DNA of 13,933 nt, taken from the UHGV virus genome UHGV-0092352; one strand, given 5' to 3'. Position numbers and translations under genes: made by a program. Shown here in pieces: positions 6,324 through 13,853 of this stretch (positions are counted from its first letter, which is position 1; each line of letters starts with the position of its first letter). This stretch comes from a virus. The notes beneath the pieces are model-generated. The model had not been told where the DNA came from, made no database searches, and was given only the letters and a program-made list of their open reading frames with translations.

Positions 6324-6881
6324 GTGCTGACAACGCAAAAACGAAAATTTGCGCTGGCGCTCATGTCCGGGAAAAACAAAACAGCGTCAGCCATTGCCGC
6401 CGGTTATTCGGCGAAGACCGCCAGGGTTAAAGGCTCGCAGCTGGCAAAAGATCCGGAGGTGCTCGCGTTTATAGCCCGTAAACAGTGCGAAACGGTGGAG
6501 GTGGATGAGGTTCCTGTTTACCGGCAGAAAAAATCAGAGCAGGAGGATAAACCCCGTCGCCGTGAGGCGGCTGCAATACCACAGCCGGACGAAAACAATC
6601 CGGAGATGCCACCGTCCGCGGTGATGTCTCCTGGTATTGAATATATGGAGGATGGTCTTCCCGATCCGGTGAAAGCCATGGGGCGGATCCTGGTGGAAAA
6701 CCTCTGCATTGATCCGAAACTGGCACTGGATGCGGCCTGGCGTCTGGCGCAGTTCACGCACCATAAAAAAGGGGATACCGGGAAAAAATCGGCAAAAGGT
6801 GATGCCGCGAAAAAAGCGGCTAACCGTTTTGCGGTGCCACCCCGACTGGTGGTGAATAACGATAATGAGGGCAACGGATGA
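6324..6881 (+). CDS. terS: Terminase small subunit (P27-family-like)
   Basis: GTG start at 6324 with GGAGGAG just upstream (in-frame stop at 6258). N-terminal HTH-like region KRKFALALMSGKNKTASAIAAGYSAKTA. Stop overlaps the large-terminase start (ATGA). Confidence 0.75.
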   Translation: MLTTQKRKFALALMSGKNKTASAIAAGYSAKTARVKGSQLAKDPEVLAFIARKQCETVEVDEVPVYRQKKSEQEDKPRRREAAAIPQPDENNPEMPPSAVMSPGIEYMEDGLPDPVKAMGRILVENLCIDPKLALDAAWRLAQFTHHKKGDTGKKSAKGDAAKKAANRFAVPPRLVVNNDNEGNG

Positions 6882-8539
6882 TACCTGTATGGAGCACAGC
6901 CTGCCCGGACTGGGCAGAGCGCCTGAAAAAGGGGCTGTCGATTATTCCGGATCCGATTTATCCGGACGAGGCCGCACATGCCCTGGCGATTTTTAAACAA
7001 CTGCGGATTGTGGATGCACCTGGTAGCCCTACGTTCGGGGAGTCCTGTGCACCGTGGGTGTTTGACCTGGTGGCGGCCCTGTTTGGCTCCTACGATGCGC
7101 AGACCGGTGTACGCCATATCAAGGAAGTTTTTATCCTTATCCCCAAGAAAAACTCGAAGTCCACGCTGGCCGCGGGGATCATGATGACGGCGCTGTTACT
7201 GAACTGGCGGCAGGCGGCGGGTTACACGATTCTGGCCCCGACTGTGGAGGTGGCGGCCAACGCCTTCAACCCTGCCCGGGATATGGTACGACGTGACGAT
7301 GATCTGGATGACCTCTGCCAGGTACAGACCCATATCCGGACCATCACCCACAGGGTGACAGACACCACCCTGAAGGTGGTGGCAGCCGATCCGAATACGG
7401 TGTCCGGTATCAAGTCCGTGGGTACGCTGATTGATGAGTTGTGGCTGTTTGGCAAGCAGTACAAGGCGGAGGACATGTTACGTGAAGCCATCGGCGGGCT
7501 TGCCTCCCGCCCGGAAGGGTTTGTGGTGTATACGACCACCCAGTCGAATGAACCGCCCGCCGGGGTGTTCAGACAGAAACTGCAGTACGCCCGGGATGTG
7601 CGCGACGGCAAAATTCATGATCCGCACTTTCTGCCGGTGATATTTGAACACCCTCCTGAAATGGTGGAAAGCGGGGCTCACCTGCTGATGGAAAACCTCG
7701 CCATGGTCAATCCGAATCTCGGCTATTCAGTGGATGAGGCCTTTCTGTACCGGGAGTACCGTAAAGCCCGGGAAGCCGGTGAAGAGACATTCCGGGGGTT
7801 CATGTCAAAACACGCCAATGTGGAAATTGGTCTTGCCCTGCGCTCTGACCGCTGGGCGGGGGCTGATTTCTGGGAAGAGCAGGGCCGTTGTATCAGCCTG
7901 GACGATATCCTGCGTCGTGCTGATGTGGTGACGGTGGGGATTGACGGCGGAGGGCTGGATGATCTGCTGGGGATGTATGTGATTGGGCGTGACCGGGAGA
8001 CCCGCGAATGGCTGGGCTGGGGCCATGCCTGGGCGCATGAAACCGCGGTGGTCCGACGGAAGAGCGAGGCGTCCCGGTTTCAGGATCTTGTTGCCTGTGG
8101 AGATATGACCATTGTCCGGCGTATCGGGGATGACACGGCGGAAGTGGCGGAATATGTGCGTCGCATTCATGAGGCTGAGTTACTGGACCATATCGGTATT
8201 GACCCGTCAGGGGTGGGGCAGATTCTGGATTCACTGGCGGAAGCCGGGATCCCCGACGGAATTGTGGTGGGGATAAGCCAGGGCTGGAAACTGGGCGGGG
8301 CCATTAAAACCACCGAGCGCAAACTGGCTGAAGGGGTGCTGGTGCATGGTGACCAGCCCCTGATGGCCTGGTGTGTCGGCAATGCCCGGGTGGAGCCTAA
8401 AGGTAACGCCATTCTTATCACCAAACAGGCCAGTGGACGGGGAAAAATTGACCCGCTGATGGCGCTGTTCAATGCGGTCTCCCTGATGTCCCTTAACCCG
8501 GAACCGAAAAAGAAAGAATATGCGGTTTTTTTCATATAA
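6878..8539 (+). CDS. terL: Terminase large subunit
   Basis: 553 aa. Start ATG 6878 overlaps the TerS stop. Large multi-domain protein in the canonical position downstream of the small subunit; resembles HK97/P27-type TerL from memory. Confidence 0.9.
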   Translation: MIPVWSTACPDWAERLKKGLSIIPDPIYPDEAAHALAIFKQLRIVDAPGSPTFGESCAPWVFDLVAALFGSYDAQTGVRHIKEVFILIPKKNSKSTLAAGIMMTALLLNWRQAAGYTILAPTVEVAANAFNPARDMVRRDDDLDDLCQVQTHIRTITHRVTDTTLKVVAADPNTVSGIKSVGTLIDELWLFGKQYKAEDMLREAIGGLASRPEGFVVYTTTQSNEPPAGVFRQKLQYARDVRDGKIHDPHFLPVIFEHPPEMVESGAHLLMENLAMVNPNLGYSVDEAFLYREYRKAREAGEETFRGFMSKHANVEIGLALRSDRWAGADFWEEQGRCISLDDILRRADVVTVGIDGGGLDDLLGMYVIGRDRETREWLGWGHAWAHETAVVRRKSEASRFQDLVACGDMTIVRRIGDDTAEVAEYVRRIHEAELLDHIGIDPSGVGQILDSLAEAGIPDGIVVGISQGWKLGGAIKTTERKLAEGVLVHGDQPLMAWCVGNARVEPKGNAILITKQASGRGKIDPLMALFNAVSLMSLNPEPKKKEYAVFFI

Positions 8540-8602: not shown

Positions 8603-10540
8603 GTGACTCTTAAACGGGCCTGTTCCCTGCTGACGGTGAAATCCTTCAGTGAGGATGAACGGGTGATCACCGGGATTGCGTCAACGCCTTCTCCGGATCG
8701 GGATGGTGACATCCTGGAGCCGGAGGGCGCGGAGTTTGGCAGTGCGATCCCGTTTCTCTGGCAGCATGACCATTCCCGCCCGGTGGGGCAGTGTACGGTG
8801 CGCCGGGTCAGCGAAGGGCTGGAAATCACGGCAACACTGGTGAAGCCCGTACCGGATATGCCGTCGCAACTGGCTGCCCGGCTGGATGAGGTCTGGGCGG
8901 CCATTAAGACCGGGCTGGTCAGGGGGCTGTCCGTGGGCTTCCGTCCCCATGAATACACCTTTCTGGACGGAGGCGGACTGCATTTTATGCGCTGGGAACT
9001 GATGGAGGTGTCTGCCGTCACCGTGCCCGCGAATGCGGAATGCACCATCCGGACCATTAAATCTTACGACCGCCCGTTTTCTGCCGCGTCCGGCAACCGG
9101 AAACCGGTGGTGAAAATCGCATCTTCTGCCGGCGCTGCGGCACAGTCAACAACCGTTTTTCATAAGGAAAAGACCATAATGAATATTGGCGAACAGATTA
9201 AAAGTTTTGAAAACAAGCGTGCAGCGCTGGCAGCCTCCCTTGAGGAGGTCATGACCAAAGCCGCAGAGGAAGGGCGCACGCTGGATGTGGAGGAGGAAGA
9301 GCATTACGACAACACCGCAGCGGAAATCCGTCAGGTGGATGCGCACCTGAAGCGCCTGCGTGAACTGGAAGCCGGTAAGGCCGCCACGGCGCAGCCGGTG
9401 AAACAGGCCGGTAACGGGAATGTGGCCGCGGTGGCTTCTGCGCCGGTGATCCGTGTGGAGCAGAAACTGGATAAGGGGATTGGCTTCGCCCGCTTTGCCA
9501 AATCGCTGGCTGCGGCTAAAGGCGTCCGATCTGAAGCCCTGGAAGTGGCCCGTCGTCAGTATCCGGATGACAGTCGTCTGCATCATGTCCTGAAATCGGC
9601 AGTGGGCGCGGGGACCACCACGGATCCGCAGTGGGCAGGCAGCCTGTCTGAATATCAGGAATACGCACAGGACTTTATTGATTACCTGCGTCCGCAGACC
9701 ATTATCGGGCGATTTGGTCAGGGCGGGATCCCTGCACTTCGTCAGGTGCCGTTCAATATCCGTGTGCACGCCCAGGTGTCCGGCGGTGCTGCCGGCTGGG
9801 TGGGTGAGGGTAAGGCAAAACCCCTGACGAAGTTTGATTTTGAATCCATCACCTTCAGTCATGCGAAAGTGTCGGCCATTGCGGTACTGACGGAAGAATT
9901 GATCCGTTTTTCCAGTCCGGCTGCTGATGCACTGGTCCGTAATGCGCTGGCGGAAGCGGTGGTGGCGCGTCTGGATACAGACTTTGTGGACCCGAAAAAA
10001 GCCGCAGTGGCAGATGTCTCCCCGGCGTCCATCACCCATGATGTGAAGGGCACGGCATCAACCGGTAACCCGGATGCGGATGCAGAGGCTGCGTTTGGAC
10101 AGTTTGTGGCAGCAAACCTGCAGCCCACCGGTGCGGTCTGGCTGATGTCCAGCACCAATGCCCTGGCACTGTCCATGCGTAAAAATGCGCTGGGTCAGAA
10201 GGAATACCCGGACATGACCCTGCTGGGTGGCTCCTTCCAGGGGCTGCCGGTGATTGTCTCCCAGTACGTGGGTGACCAACTGGTGCTGGTGAATGCCCCG
10301 GATATTTATCTGGCGGATGACGGCGGCGTGGCAGTGGATATGTCCCGCGAGGCATCACTGGAAATGCAGTCTGAGCCGACCGGCGACAGTACCACGCCGT
10401 CCCCGGTGGAGCTGGTTTCCATGTTCCAGACAGGCAGCGTGGCCATCCGTGCGGAGCGCTGGATCAACTGGCGTCGTCGCCGTACCGCGGCAGTGGCGGT
10501 GATCACCGGTGTGAACTACGGAACTGCGTCCGGCGGCTGA
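8603..10540 (+). CDS. Fused HK97-family prohead protease - scaffold-like domain - major capsid protein
   Basis: GTG start 8603 with AGGAGG 5 nt upstream. N-terminal ~180 aa carry prohead-protease hallmarks (FLWQHDHSRPVG; GLSVGF; LMEVSAVTVPANAE). A coiled-coil delta-like segment is followed by an HK97-fold capsid domain. One uninterrupted 645-codon frame. Confidence 0.85.
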   Translation: MTLKRACSLLTVKSFSEDERVITGIASTPSPDRDGDILEPEGAEFGSAIPFLWQHDHSRPVGQCTVRRVSEGLEITATLVKPVPDMPSQLAARLDEVWAAIKTGLVRGLSVGFRPHEYTFLDGGGLHFMRWELMEVSAVTVPANAECTIRTIKSYDRPFSAASGNRKPVVKIASSAGAAAQSTTVFHKEKTIMNIGEQIKSFENKRAALAASLEEVMTKAAEEGRTLDVEEEEHYDNTAAEIRQVDAHLKRLRELEAGKAATAQPVKQAGNGNVAAVASAPVIRVEQKLDKGIGFARFAKSLAAAKGVRSEALEVARRQYPDDSRLHHVLKSAVGAGTTTDPQWAGSLSEYQEYAQDFIDYLRPQTIIGRFGQGGIPALRQVPFNIRVHAQVSGGAAGWVGEGKAKPLTKFDFESITFSHAKVSAIAVLTEELIRFSSPAADALVRNALAEAVVARLDTDFVDPKKAAVADVSPASITHDVKGTASTGNPDADAEAAFGQFVAANLQPTGAVWLMSSTNALALSMRKNALGQKEYPDMTLLGGSFQGLPVIVSQYVGDQLVLVNAPDIYLADDGGVAVDMSREASLEMQSEPTGDSTTPSPVELVSMFQTGSVAIRAERWINWRRRRTAAVAVITGVNYGTASGG

Positions 10541-10584: not shown

Positions 10585-10806
10585 ATGGCAAAAATCCAGT
10601 ATCTGCAGGGCACGCATGATGCCCGGGCCGGGGATATCCGTGATGTGGCACAGCCGTGTGCGGAGGTGCTGGTTCGCCTGGGGAAGGCGGAGTACATCAC
10701 AGTGCGACGTCCGGCAGGTCAGAAAAAGAAACGTGATGCGGAGCATGGCGAATGTGGAACCTTTTGCGGCGAACCCGAAAAAACCAGAAATCAGGACGTG
10801 ATGTAA
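10585..10806 (+). CDS. Hypothetical small ORF between capsid and portal genes
   Basis: 73-codon ORF filling the 211-bp gap. Weak SD; the C-terminal third is low-complexity and overlaps the portal start by 55 nt. May not be a real gene. Confidence 0.25.
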   Translation: MAKIQYLQGTHDARAGDIRDVAQPCAEVLVRLGKAEYITVRRPAGQKKKRDAEHGECGTFCGEPEKTRNQDVM

Positions 10807-12116
10807 AAGAGGTGGGCTGGACCAGCCTGTTTCAGGCGGTGGCTGAGCCCTTTTCCGGCGCCTGGCAGCAGGGCGTGAAAGCCGATCCTGAAGCCGTCCT
10901 CTCCTTTCATGCGGTGTTTGCATGTATTTCGCTGATATCCCAGGATATCGCCAAAATGCGGCTGCGTCTTATGCAGACGGATGCGCATGGGATACGCAGG
11001 GAAACGCGCCGGGGGGATATTGCCCGTCTCTGTCGTCGTCCCAATGCACAGCAGAATCGTATCCAGTTTTTTGAACTGTGGCTGAACGCCAAACTGCGTC
11101 ACGGCAATACGGTGGTGCTGAAAATCCGTAACTCCCGGGGGCAGATCAAAGAACTGCGTATTCTGGACTGGAGCCGGGTTGAACCTCTGGTGGCGGATGA
11201 CGGCGAGGTGTTCTATCGCATTACACCGGACCGGAACTGCGGGATCACGGAGGCGGTGATGGTGCCTGCCAGGGAAGTGATCCACGACCGGTTTAACTGT
11301 TTTTTTCATCCGCTTGTGGGGCTGCCGCCGGTGTATGCTGCCGGGCTGGCTGCCACGCAGGGGCATCATATTCAGGCAAATTCAACGTCTTTTTTCAGAA
11401 ATGGCGGCAGGCCGTCCGGGGTGATTGAGATCCCCGGCAGTATAACGGAAGAAAATGCGAAAAAACTGAAGAGCAACTGGGACAGCGGGTATACCGGCGA
11501 AAATGCGGGGAAAACGGCGATCCTGAGCAACGGGGCGAAATATAACCCCACGACGTTTTCACCGGTGGATGCGCAGACGGTGGAACAGCTGAAAATGACG
11601 GCTGAAATTGTCTGTTCGGTGTTCCGTGTCCCGGCCTACAAGATTGGTGTGGGACAACCGCCTTCCAGTGACAACGTGGAGGCGCTGGAGCAGCAGTATT
11701 ATTCCCAGTGTCTGCAGACGCTGATTGAGTCCATTGAGCTGTTACTGGATGAGGCGCTGGAAACAGGGGAAAACGAGAGCACGGAGTTTGACGTCACCAC
11801 GCTGCTGAGAATGGACAGCGAACGTCGCATGAAAACGCTGGGGGATGCGGTGAAAAATACGCTTCTCACGCCCAATGAGGCCCGTAAACGTGAGAATCTG
11901 CCGCCCCTGGCAGGAGGCGATGCACTGTATCTTCAGCAGCAGAACTACAGTCTGGAGGCGCTGTCCCGTCGTGATGCCCGTGAGGATCCGTTCGCGTCTT
12001 CCGGGAAAACGTCGTCAGGCACACGCCAGGAGGGCGCGTCTGACGGTAATAAGGCCATAAGCGAAACAGAGCGTGATGCGGTGAAGGCGATGTTCAGGGG
12101 GATACTGCGAAAATGA
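10752..12116 (+). CDS. Portal protein (HK97-family-like)
   Basis: 454 aa. N-terminus MWNLLRRTRKNQ...WTSLFQ is typical of HK97-type portals. In-frame stop at 10734-10736 makes ATG 10752 the first start (GGAG 9 nt upstream); GTG 10812 is an alternative start. Confidence 0.85.
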   Translation: MWNLLRRTRKNQKSGRDVKEVGWTSLFQAVAEPFSGAWQQGVKADPEAVLSFHAVFACISLISQDIAKMRLRLMQTDAHGIRRETRRGDIARLCRRPNAQQNRIQFFELWLNAKLRHGNTVVLKIRNSRGQIKELRILDWSRVEPLVADDGEVFYRITPDRNCGITEAVMVPAREVIHDRFNCFFHPLVGLPPVYAAGLAATQGHHIQANSTSFFRNGGRPSGVIEIPGSITEENAKKLKSNWDSGYTGENAGKTAILSNGAKYNPTTFSPVDAQTVEQLKMTAEIVCSVFRVPAYKIGVGQPPSSDNVEALEQQYYSQCLQTLIESIELLLDEALETGENESTEFDVTTLLRMDSERRMKTLGDAVKNTLLTPNEARKRENLPPLAGGDALYLQQQNYSLEALSRRDAREDPFASSGKTSSGTRQEGASDGNKAISETERDAVKAMFRGILRK

Positions 12117-13174
12117 CTGAGCGTGAACTGTCCATTATCCGTGCGCTGGGTGAAGAATTCTCCACAGTGCTGGCGGATTTACAGCGCACATTTGAGGGGA
12201 AGATGGCCTCGCAGGCACAAGCGTTTGAAGAGAAACTGACTTCCCTGTCGGCGGTATTACAGAAGCATGTGACGGTGGATGAGGTGCGTCCGGTTCTGCA
12301 GGCGATGGTGGATGAGGCTGTGGGGGCCATTCCGGTACCGCGTGATGGTCGTGATTATGATCCGGATGTACTGCAGCAGGCGGTGAATGATGCGGTCGCA
12401 AATATTCCGCAGCCGGCGGACGGTAAAAGTCTCACCCCGGATGATGTGCGTCCGATGCTTGAACAGATGGTGAAGGAGGCGGTAAGCCATATTCCTGTTC
12501 CGCGTGATGGTCGTGACTACGATCCGGAAGTATTGCAGAAGGCGGTGAATGATGCGGTCGCAAATATTCCTGTACCGGCGGACGGCAAAAGTATTACCCC
12601 CGATGATGTGCGTCCGATGCTTGAGCAGATGGTGAAAGAGGCCGTAAGTCATATCCCTGCTCCGCGTGACGGTTGTGACTATGATCCGGATGTTCTGCGG
12701 AAGGCGGTTCTGGAGGCGGTGAATGCCCTGCCGGCTCCGCAGGACGGGCGTGATGCCACGGCACTGGAAATACTCCCTGCCATTGACGATCAAAAATCCT
12801 TTCCCCGGGGCACGTATGCCACACACCAGGGCGGACTCTGGCGGGCGTATGAAAAAACGCACGGGATGCGGGGATGGGAATGCCTGGTTGACGGGGTGGC
12901 GGATATTGACGTCAGCATGACGGGTGAACGGTTGTTCTCTGTGGTGGTCCGGCAGAGCAGTGGCCAGCGTACGGAAAAAACATTTTCCCTGCCGGTGATG
13001 CTCTACCGCGGTGTGTTCAGAGCCGGTGAAACCTACCACCCCGGCGATACGGTGACGTGGGGGGGCTCGCTGTGGCACTGCAACAGTATGACCGAAGATA
13101 AACCCGGAGAAGCTCATTCATCAGCCTGGACCCTGGCTGCAAAACGTGGGCGGGATGCAGGAGGTGGAAAGTGA
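12113..13174 (+). CDS. Repeat-containing head-module protein with a C-terminal carbohydrate-binding-like motif (candidate decoration or fibre-like protein)
   Basis: Start ATG 12113 overlaps the portal stop (ATGA). Contains three in-frame 54-aa tandem repeats (IPVPRDGRDYDP.. / IPxPADGKSxTPDD..). C-terminus has a Y..GD.V.W.G.LW.C...PG....W pattern resembling CBM5/12 (ChtBD3) modules, from memory. Confidence 0.75.
   Translation: MTERELSIIRALGEEFSTVLADLQRTFEGKMASQAQAFEEKLTSLSAVLQKHVTVDEVRPVLQAMVDEAVGAIPVPRDGRDYDPDVLQQAVNDAVANIPQPADGKSLTPDDVRPMLEQMVKEAVSHIPVPRDGRDYDPEVLQKAVNDAVANIPVPADGKSITPDDVRPMLEQMVKEAVSHIPAPRDGCDYDPDVLRKAVLEAVNALPAPQDGRDATALEILPAIDDQKSFPRGTYATHQGGLWRAYEKTHGMRGWECLVDGVADIDVSMTGERLFSVVVRQSSGQRTEKTFSLPVMLYRGVFRAGETYHPGDTVTWGGSLWHCNSMTEDKPGEAHSSAWTLAAKRGRDAGGGK
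12284..12769 (+). repeat. Tandem direct repeat, 3 x 162 bp, in-frame within a coding sequence
   Basis: GTGCGTCCG... units begin at 12284, 12446 and 12608 (period exactly 162 bp). Copies 2 and 3 are near-identical and copy 1 is more diverged. Each unit holds two ~27-aa sub-repeats. Confidence 0.85.
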
Positions 13175-13377
13175 CAGCATTACTGACACTGGAAGAAATC
13201 AAGGCTCATCTGCGTGTTGACCATGACGCGGATGATGAGATGCTGATGGACAAGGTTCGTCAGGCTACAGCTGTGCTGCTGGCCTACATTCAGGGCAGCC
13301 GGGATAAGGTAATCCGTGAGGACGGTGAACTGATCCCGGGCGAGGCATTAACCCGGATGAAGGGGGCATGCGCCTGA
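13171..13377 (+). CDS. Head-tail connector protein (gp6-like), apparently frameshifted: N-terminal part
   Basis: GTG start 13171 with AGGAGG 6 nt upstream, overlapping the previous stop. N-terminus MTALLTLEEIKAHLRVDHDADDEML is typical of gp6-like connectors. The frame stops after 68 aa, while a different frame (13329-13493) continues with an LYRN motif like the usual C-terminus and ends 10 nt before the next gene's ATG. Confidence 0.6.
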   Translation: MTALLTLEEIKAHLRVDHDADDEMLMDKVRQATAVLLAYIQGSRDKVIREDGELIPGEALTRMKGACA

Positions 13378-13502: not shown

Positions 13503-13853
13503 ATGGCAATATCTGCAGGTCGTCTGACACAGATGATAAGTGTTCTGAACCCGGTGTTAACCCGTAATGCTGCCGGAGAAATGACGGAAGAATGGGTGTC
13601 ATGCGGGAAAATTCATGCGGATATCCGGGGCAGGAGCAGCCGGGAGCGGATGCAGTCCGGTGCGGAAATGGCGCAGGCGGAAATCCGCATTTGGGTGCGC
13701 GGTCAGTCCGGTCGGGAAATCACGGCGGCGTCACGACTTCATGTGCTGAGTGGTCCCTGGCGTGACTGTATCCTGAATGTTGTCGGGGTGCCCGTGCCGG
13801 ATGCGACCGGCGGGCGCCTGGAAATTCTCTGTCGGCTGGGAGGGGAAAAATGA
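13503..13853 (+). CDS. Head-tail adaptor / head closure protein (Phage_H_T_join-like)
   Basis: Strong SD GAGGAGGGGG before ATG 13503. MAISAGRLTQMISVLNPV...GEMTEEW...AEIRIWVRG...LEILCRLG matches the conserved pattern of head-tail joining proteins (AGRLRHRI...EW...AEV.H.I.IRYR...LEL.C), from memory. Confidence 0.8.
   Translation: MAISAGRLTQMISVLNPVLTRNAAGEMTEEWVSCGKIHADIRGRSSRERMQSGAEMAQAEIRIWVRGQSGREITAASRLHVLSGPWRDCILNVVGVPVPDATGGRLEILCRLGGEK

Follow-up and report, generated by a model that had tools for sequence, protein, structure and literature searches.

In solved structures, the C-termini of portal proteins form a crown that faces the capsid interior, and in P22 the portal protein gp1 has a C-terminal helical barrel of about 120 residues. 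SPP1 gp7 and Mu gpF are recruited to the procapsid by binding the portal. Here we set beside these systems an open reading frame (ORF), referred to as X, of UHGV virus genome UHGV-0092352, a stretch of 13,933 nucleotides (nt) that we call the window and that holds the late region of a lambdoid, Shiga toxin (Stx)-type E. coli prophage. The start codon of X overlaps the stop codon of the portal gene, an arrangement conserved in distant proteobacterial loci, and in some alleles X is fused in frame to the portal C-terminus. We hold with moderate confidence that X is a low-copy appendage of the portal vertex, tethered to the portal in about 12 copies and projecting into the head. The locus has the following features (window coordinates; aa, amino acids):

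10752-12116, + strand: HK97-type portal gene, 454 aa (Pfam Phage_portal, E 4.2e-81; PHROG 2271/12)
12097-12101, + strand: G5 homopolymer run that sets the frame relation of portal and X, from comparison with two related loci (L001, L002)
12113-12116, + strand: ATGA, the X start codon overlapping the portal stop codon, read from the sequence
12113-13174, + strand: ORF X, 353 aa, acidic (pI 4.9)
12119-12259, + strand: long amphipathic N-terminal helix, residues 3-49, with 3-4 hydrophobic spacing (heptad pattern in the sequence; predicted local distance difference test (pLDDT) score ~87-95 in an AlphaFold2 (AF2) model)
12248-12328, + strand: diverged 27-aa half-unit before the array (helix type 2), 54-56% identical in nt to the second half of each full unit
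12329-12490, + strand: repeat unit A, 54 aa in two 27-aa halves (IPVPRDG...helix, IPQPADG...helix)
12491-12652, + strand: repeat unit B, 88% nt and 93% aa identity to unit A
12653-12733, + strand: partial third unit, first half only, leading into the C-terminal domain, 70% nt identity to the first half
12725-13171, + strand: conserved all-beta C-terminal domain, residues 205-353, ending in a near-invariant K-R-G-R-D motif
12800-12889, + strand: CBM5/12-like hairpin module 1, about residues 230-259
13001-13141, + strand: CBM5/12-like hairpin module 2, about residues 297-343
13171-13377, + strand: gp6-like head-tail adaptor (Ad1), 68 aa here, start overlapping the X stop (Pfam Phage_connect_1)

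A preliminary description of the window had given the limits of ORF X exactly, and it correctly saw a head-module protein with in-frame repeats, encoded between the portal and adaptor genes. X lacks a ribosome-binding site of its own: there is no spacer and no well-placed Shine-Dalgarno (SD) sequence, the motif AGGGGG ending 11 nt before the ATG. As far as the sequence goes, the stop-start overlap is consistent with translational coupling of X to the portal. Together, the overlap and the absence of a well-placed SD sequence point to a low, portal-matched expression, of about a dozen copies per particle and not hundreds. The earlier suggestion of a capsid decoration protein does not sit well with this mode of expression, nor with the portal being the conserved neighbor. 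Searches of Pfam, PHROG, NCBIfam, and PDB matched X to none of the decoration or head-fiber families considered (lambda gpD, Hoc, Dec, and phi29 gp8.5).

The link to the portal is universal. We compared 80 loci, one genome per species, from Enterobacterales, Pseudomonas, Burkholderiaceae, Comamonadaceae, Rhizobiales, Sphingomonadales, and other groups. A long upstream ORF could be called in 64 of these, and in 63 of the 64, which span gamma-, beta-, and alphaproteobacteria, it matches Pfam Phage_portal. In 63 of 63 cases, portal stop and earliest X start overlap, by 4 nt in 24 loci, by 1 nt in nine, and by 7-38 nt in the rest. Adaptor and head-closure genes lie downstream of X in the distant loci, and the portal-X-adaptor order is also found in the isolated phages Salmonella FSL SP-016 and Rhizobium RHph_X2_26. 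Because RHph_X2_26 keeps this order even though its portal is preceded by a gene other than a capsid gene, X has the portal, and not the capsid protein, as its conserved partner.

The two genes can also become one. The G5 run of the window leaves two overlapping genes, whereas one extra G (G6) at 12097-12101 gives a single portal-X ORF, as in Stx2a_WGPS6, phage 2851, and vB_EcoS-705R7. The fused ORF of WGPS6 and 2851 is 859 aa long, with three full repeat units and a junction that reads ...AMFRGDTEKMTEREL... The final ~70 residues of the portal are a low-complexity tail, with the terminus ...AMFRGILRK* in the window, and in the fused alleles the N-terminal helix of X is joined directly to this tail (...FRGDTEKMTEREL...). 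Of 84 loci with comparable junction flanks, drawn from IMG/VR and from phages and including the window, 56 have the G5/split form and 28 the G6/fused form. Clustering of 500 nt flanks gave about 30 haplotype clusters, with G5 on about 24 and G6 on about 6, a distribution that we take to reflect several historical switches between the two states. In complete-genome records, the exact G6 junction haplotype was found 747 times and the same flanks with G5 29 times; as the 29 records could be homopolymer errors in long-read assemblies, we do not claim active phase variation of the tract.

A second, independent fusion is present in a Pantoea-type lineage, in a 1243-aa protein (locus L110, 2737-6468) and a 1237-aa protein (P0255). 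These two have diverged from each other yet stay fused. All loci retain the X ATG, and inside the fusions the former start is present as an internal Met. In the Pantoea-type fusions, some twenty 27-aa units in tandem, each of the form (I/L)PxPEPLPDIxxMVxxAVxxI, make up the longest arrays that we saw in the family. Split and fused forms are both known from phages obtained from induced particles. Phage 2851 has the fused form and is said to have been described as infectious by Strauch and colleagues in 2008. Lys8385Vzw has the split form, with a 245-aa X, and packages DNA (PMC7946995). Based on the wider comparison of distant loci, the ancestral and usual arrangement is that of two overlapping genes, with the fusion as a derived, tolerated variant. 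Its recurrence and persistence suggest that portal and X work in contact, and as it joins X to the portal C-terminus, they point to an attachment of X at the capsid-interior end, which makes an external fiber less likely. In the manually assembled Sanger record of vB_EcoS_phi330 (L172, PV189401), the X, gp10-like, and major tail genes are each split into two ORFs, a likely sign of frameshift errors in this record; we left its junction state out of the comparison.

The AF2 model of full-length X has three parts: the long N-terminal helix, six helices of 13-17 residues with low-confidence Pro/Gly linkers, and the beta domain. The N-terminal helix is likely the segment for oligomerization and attachment. 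In the repeats, each 54-aa unit consists of two 27-aa halves made of IPxPxDG and then a short amphipathic helix. The in-frame tandem period of 162 bp noted in the preliminary description stands, as Tandem Repeats Finder (TRF) reports it without indels at 12329-12708 (87% matches, score 590). The three copies described there, with the second and third nearly identical, do not: in that register (12277/12439/12601) identity is 81% between copies 1 and 2, 73% between 2 and 3, and 65% between 1 and 3, and the natural register is two full units (88%) plus diverged half-units. Nor is the duplication very recent, as had been proposed. Units A and B differ at 16 codons, 12 of them synonymous; the duplication is thus old enough to drift, with the peptide under constraint.

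The expected variation in copy number is borne out, with 0 to 6 full units among homologs. In 82 related viral and phage loci, X is 245, 353, 405/407, 461, or 569 aa long, with odd lengths of 280 and 325 aa, and the 900-bp matches in a phage collection correspond to a 299-aa X. The window is a contig of a short-read metagenome in ENA (ERZ857990 NODE_3076, coverage 3.0x). This coverage leaves its indels, the lengths of its homopolymers, and its number of repeats open to doubt, and the count of units in its own X is therefore uncertain. Short-read public assemblies very often stop inside the X repeats (for example, L169-L171 at position 1), because of the repeats and of the multiple prophage copies per genome, and the partial products are named ‘phage gp6-like head-tail connector protein, partial’ or ‘phage portal protein, partial’.

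The C-terminal domain is the conserved end of the protein, with 45-70% identity from E. coli to Pseudomonas and Burkholderiaceae. An AF2 model of residues 205-353, built with 112 diverse homologs, is all-beta (pLDDT 94.6), and the two hairpin modules flank a small sheet within it. The proposed resemblance to CBM5/12 modules thus holds for the fold, a small antiparallel beta fold in the model. At the level of sequence it stays below threshold: Pfam CBM_5_12 (PF02839) gives a partial match of 21.4 bits (E 2.5e-4) between residues 303-325 and profile positions 3-25 of 44, the gathering score being 26.2 bits, and distant X homologs score 16-23 bits. The motif had also been written with the wrong spacing, as seven residues and not three separate C323 from P331, and six and not four separate G332 from W339. 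In CBM5/12 domains the sugar-stacking aromatics sit in this loop (W687 in ChiA1, a W-W/Y pair in ChiB and ChiC). The family consensus ...GSxWHCxxxTxxKPG... has no conserved aromatic there, as judged from loop position.

From these data we infer the physical tethering, the copy number, the interior location, and the role of X. X would be a minor protein of the portal vertex, with a structural or an assembly function. It would be made in step with the portal through translational coupling, and its N-terminal helix would be tethered to the flexible C-terminal tail of the HK97-type portal. This tether would be non-covalent in the G5 form, as in the window, and covalent in the G6 alleles, where both are one polypeptide. 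About 12 copies would then project from the portal crown into the head, and in each of them short amphipathic helices joined by Pro/Gly linkers would form a segmented stalk. The length of the stalk varies from 0 to 6 54-aa units in E. coli-type loci to about 20 half-units in Pantoea, and each stalk would end in the conserved tandem CBM5/12-fold domain. By analogy with the P22 portal barrel, SPP1 gp7, and Mu gpF, which have effects on the retention and delivery of DNA, the most likely role of X would be in organizing or retaining the DNA end and in genome delivery.

Several points weigh against a portal-tethered appendage inside the head. Our searches of the literature gave no proteomic, electron microscopy (EM), or genetic evidence for X in virions or for its side of the capsid wall. 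X has fiber-like features, namely, a coiled-coil-like N-terminus, a variable repeat stalk, and a CBM-like tip; the structural neighbors of this tip are tail fibers and tailspikes, and some family members have a short collagen-like Gly-X-Y tail. An acidic protein of up to ~570 aa per fused copy (in E. coli-type loci) is also a large load beside packed DNA. The fused alleles could be a tolerated loss of function of a dispensable accessory protein, and their abundance is partly due to the heavy sequencing of clonal O157. We think it improbable that X defines a new, very widespread class of portal-crown appendage, a ‘portal barrel’ that is detachable, varies in length, and binds peptidoglycan or glycans with its tip. 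It would be packaged in the head and expelled ahead of or with the DNA to help deliver the genome, and G5/G6 slippage would switch its attachment between covalent and non-covalent. If this were true, thousands of E. coli ‘frameshifted portal pseudogenes’ would be intact two-gene loci.

The alternative that survives best, unlikely as we find it, is an external neck or collar fiber similar to the T4 fibritin whiskers, in which trimers of X would sit with their N-terminal coiled coil on the portal or adaptor outside the head, with the CBM5/12-like domain towards glycans. It transfers the idea of the preliminary description from the capsid surface to the neck. The fiber-like architecture, the collagen-like tails of some relatives, and the fiber-type structural neighbors would all be explained in this way. 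However, fusion to the portal C-terminus would trap X inside, and yet such alleles are frequent, have outlasted divergence, and are found in 2851. The tip is also far more conserved than receptor-binding tips usually are. The outward glycan-binding fiber of the preliminary description is thus the less likely reading, given the portal fusions and the strong conservation of the C-terminal domain. In addition, transmission electron microscopy (TEM) of the related Pankowvirus phi330 was reported to reveal no head or neck fibers; this phage depends on OmpC, which its J-like tail fiber is predicted (AlphaFold3) to bind, and the mass-spectrometry maps of the same paper are for podophages only (PMC12502783).

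It is rather improbable that X is a portal-tethered assembly factor, similar to a scaffold or core, that helps nucleate the shell and is then removed by the prohead protease, so that none of it remains in mature virions. The acidity of X, its elongated and mostly helical form, its place in the head module, and its coupling to the portal would all suit such a factor. Moreover, the 645-aa fusion of the protease with the major capsid protein puts a protease in every prohead, which could release X from fused portals too. Nevertheless, the ~200 residues between the protease and capsid domains of this fusion could already act as an internal scaffold, known scaffolds do not resemble the beta domain that is the best conserved part of X, and a stalk that varies from 0 to 6 units in close relatives would be odd for a size-determining core.

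We have little belief in the view taken by databases, in which the true gene is the fused portal of ~860 aa and the window carries a frameshifted portal pseudogene, with X as a by-product of decay or assembly error. PGAP names a junction identical to that of the window ‘phage portal protein, frameshifted’, and several phage records say ‘portal protein (pseudogene)’. The contig has 3x coverage and an adaptor gene with a 4-bp deletion, which would also fit decay or error. The Sakai prophage survey of Asadulghani et al. scored the portal as defective in Sp6, Sp9, and Sp12 (PMC2669165). Against this, separate overlapping portal and X genes are found in 63 of the 64 distant loci and in isolated phages, G5 predominates among the junction haplotype clusters, no locus has lost the X ATG, and the split-form Lys8385Vzw packages DNA.

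Finally, programmed -1 frameshifting on the G5 template, which would yield a minority portal-X fusion beside free portal and free X, is very improbable: the junction has no X_XXY_YYZ heptamer, the 116 nt across it (12085-12200) have no significant structure (z -0.56), in distant loci the frame of X is either -1 or +1 to that of the portal, depending on the overlap length, and such stop-start overlaps are ordinary coupling signals. The sites that might slip are G_GGG (12098-12101) and A_AAA_TGA (12110-12116), and the junction-spanning peptides would be FRGDTAKMTEREL or GILRKMTEREL. In its favor, P-site re-pairing would be perfect and the frame correct after a slip at either site, an AGGGGG that resembles an SD sequence is located 8 nt before the A run, and T4 portal-GFP fusions are reported to work best mixed with wild-type portal.

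Proteins related to X are widespread, and the X sequence is already in databases under misleading names. A search of 1.84 billion representative proteins returned at least 5,693 clusters (50% identity) at E<=1e-3 and 2,734 at E<=1e-10. Among the 150 matches listed, only one, the portal fusion P0255, has a portal part; save for a few short fragments, the matches listed are 210-860 aa long and have a common plan, in which an N-terminal helix is followed by IPxPKDG-type units in variable number and by a conserved C-terminal domain ending ...WxLAVKRGRDGKDG. An X homolog is carried by three Pseudomonas phages, and the family is present in 1,060 of 5,426 complete E. coli genomes (median 2 copies), with the portal-X junction at 2,528 places. 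No Pfam or NCBIfam model covers the family: searches of Pfam, NCBIfam, and PDB sequences with X and distant members gave only sub-threshold CBM_5_12 and collagen matches. The portal models Phage_portal and portal_HK97 (PF04860 / TIGR01537) have no match in X, the portal domain lying wholly in the upstream ORF. PHROGs 1289 and 2271 label the X family ‘portal protein’; PHROG 1289 is the X family, apparently named after the fused forms. Other database names are ‘phage portal protein’, ‘gp6-like head-tail connector, partial’, ‘carbohydrate binding domain protein’, and frameshifted pseudogene. An antisense ORF of 286 aa inside X (12257-13117, minus strand) is without supporting homology. As all homology is on the + strand, it was rejected as a gene and is probably due to the coding repeats.

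The window is 94-97% identical to Pankowvirus-type phages (such as 2851, WGPS6, and vB_EcoS-705R7). Outside the portal-X-adaptor segment, it encodes the following:

61-1776: sialate-O-acetylesterase-like protein, 571 aa, SASA domain and DUF6645 (Pfam)
6324-6881: small terminase
6878-8539: large terminase
8603-10540: prohead-protease/major-capsid fusion, 645 aa, Peptidase_S78 and Phage_capsid (Pfam)
13503-13853: head-closure protein

The capsid fusion gene lies upstream of the portal gene, an unusual order, and its product has Peptidase_S78 at residues 48-152, the linker of ~200 residues, and an HK97-type capsid domain at 386-635. In the adaptor gene, a 4-bp deletion (CTGC) at about 13366 cuts the product to 68 aa, compared with 108 aa in the aligned orthologs of 2851, Lys8385Vzw, and 705R7; this reflects either a defective prophage or a wrong assembly at 3x coverage. 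The same gene starts with GTG, compared with ATG in these orthologs. Near the 3′ end of the small-terminase ORF, a 27-bp unit, AAAAGGGGATACCGCGAAAAAAGCGGC, is present in two tandem copies (6767-6820, 85% matches). A 2026 preprint reports a processed esterase that decorates the capsid of phi24B, an Stx phage (10.64898/2026.04.10.717836). If the gene at 61-1776 encodes the same kind of esterase, a capsid decoration directed at glycans would more plausibly be its product than X.

From a practical perspective, the main immediate value of these results lies in an annotation correction and in a natural pair of fused and unfused alleles. Once X is treated as a gene in its own right, coupled to the portal, the prophages of enterohemorrhagic E. 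coli (EHEC) and other genomes are scored differently for intactness. In addition, proteins attached at the inside of the portal affect how DNA is retained and ejected, and fused and unfused X provide a natural allele pair with which such an appendage can be tested.

Among known systems, the barrel of P22 gp1 is similar to X in the G6 and Pantoea alleles, where X is a C-terminal, largely helical extension of the portal, and X likewise would extend from the crown, with 12 copies in each particle. Unlike the barrel, X shows no sequence similarity to gp1 and is normally a separate gene, and its stalk consists of helices of 13-17 residues broken by Pro/Gly linkers, is variable in length, and has a beta domain at its end. 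With SPP1 gp7 and Mu gpF, X shares a gene position directly downstream of the portal gene (63 of 64 loci) and would share a low copy number, but neither X nor nine distant members match Phage_Mu_F (PF04233). MuF proteins are described as having a conserved N-terminal domain and polymorphic C-termini (PMC5576092); in X, it is the C-terminus that is conserved and the middle that varies. Unlike the CBM5/12 domains of ChiB, ChiC, ChiA1, and EGZ, X packs two modules in one 149-aa domain. T4 fibritin (wac) and other segmented coiled-coil fibers have in common with X an N-terminal attachment segment, loop-interrupted helices, a small C-terminal beta domain, and a neck-gene neighbor. X has no homology to fibritin, however, and is fused to the portal in some alleles; we know of no fibritin fused to a portal. 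What is distinctive of X is the combination of 27/54-aa helix-linker repeats, a tandem CBM5/12-fold tip, and a homopolymer-controlled split/fused dimorphism.

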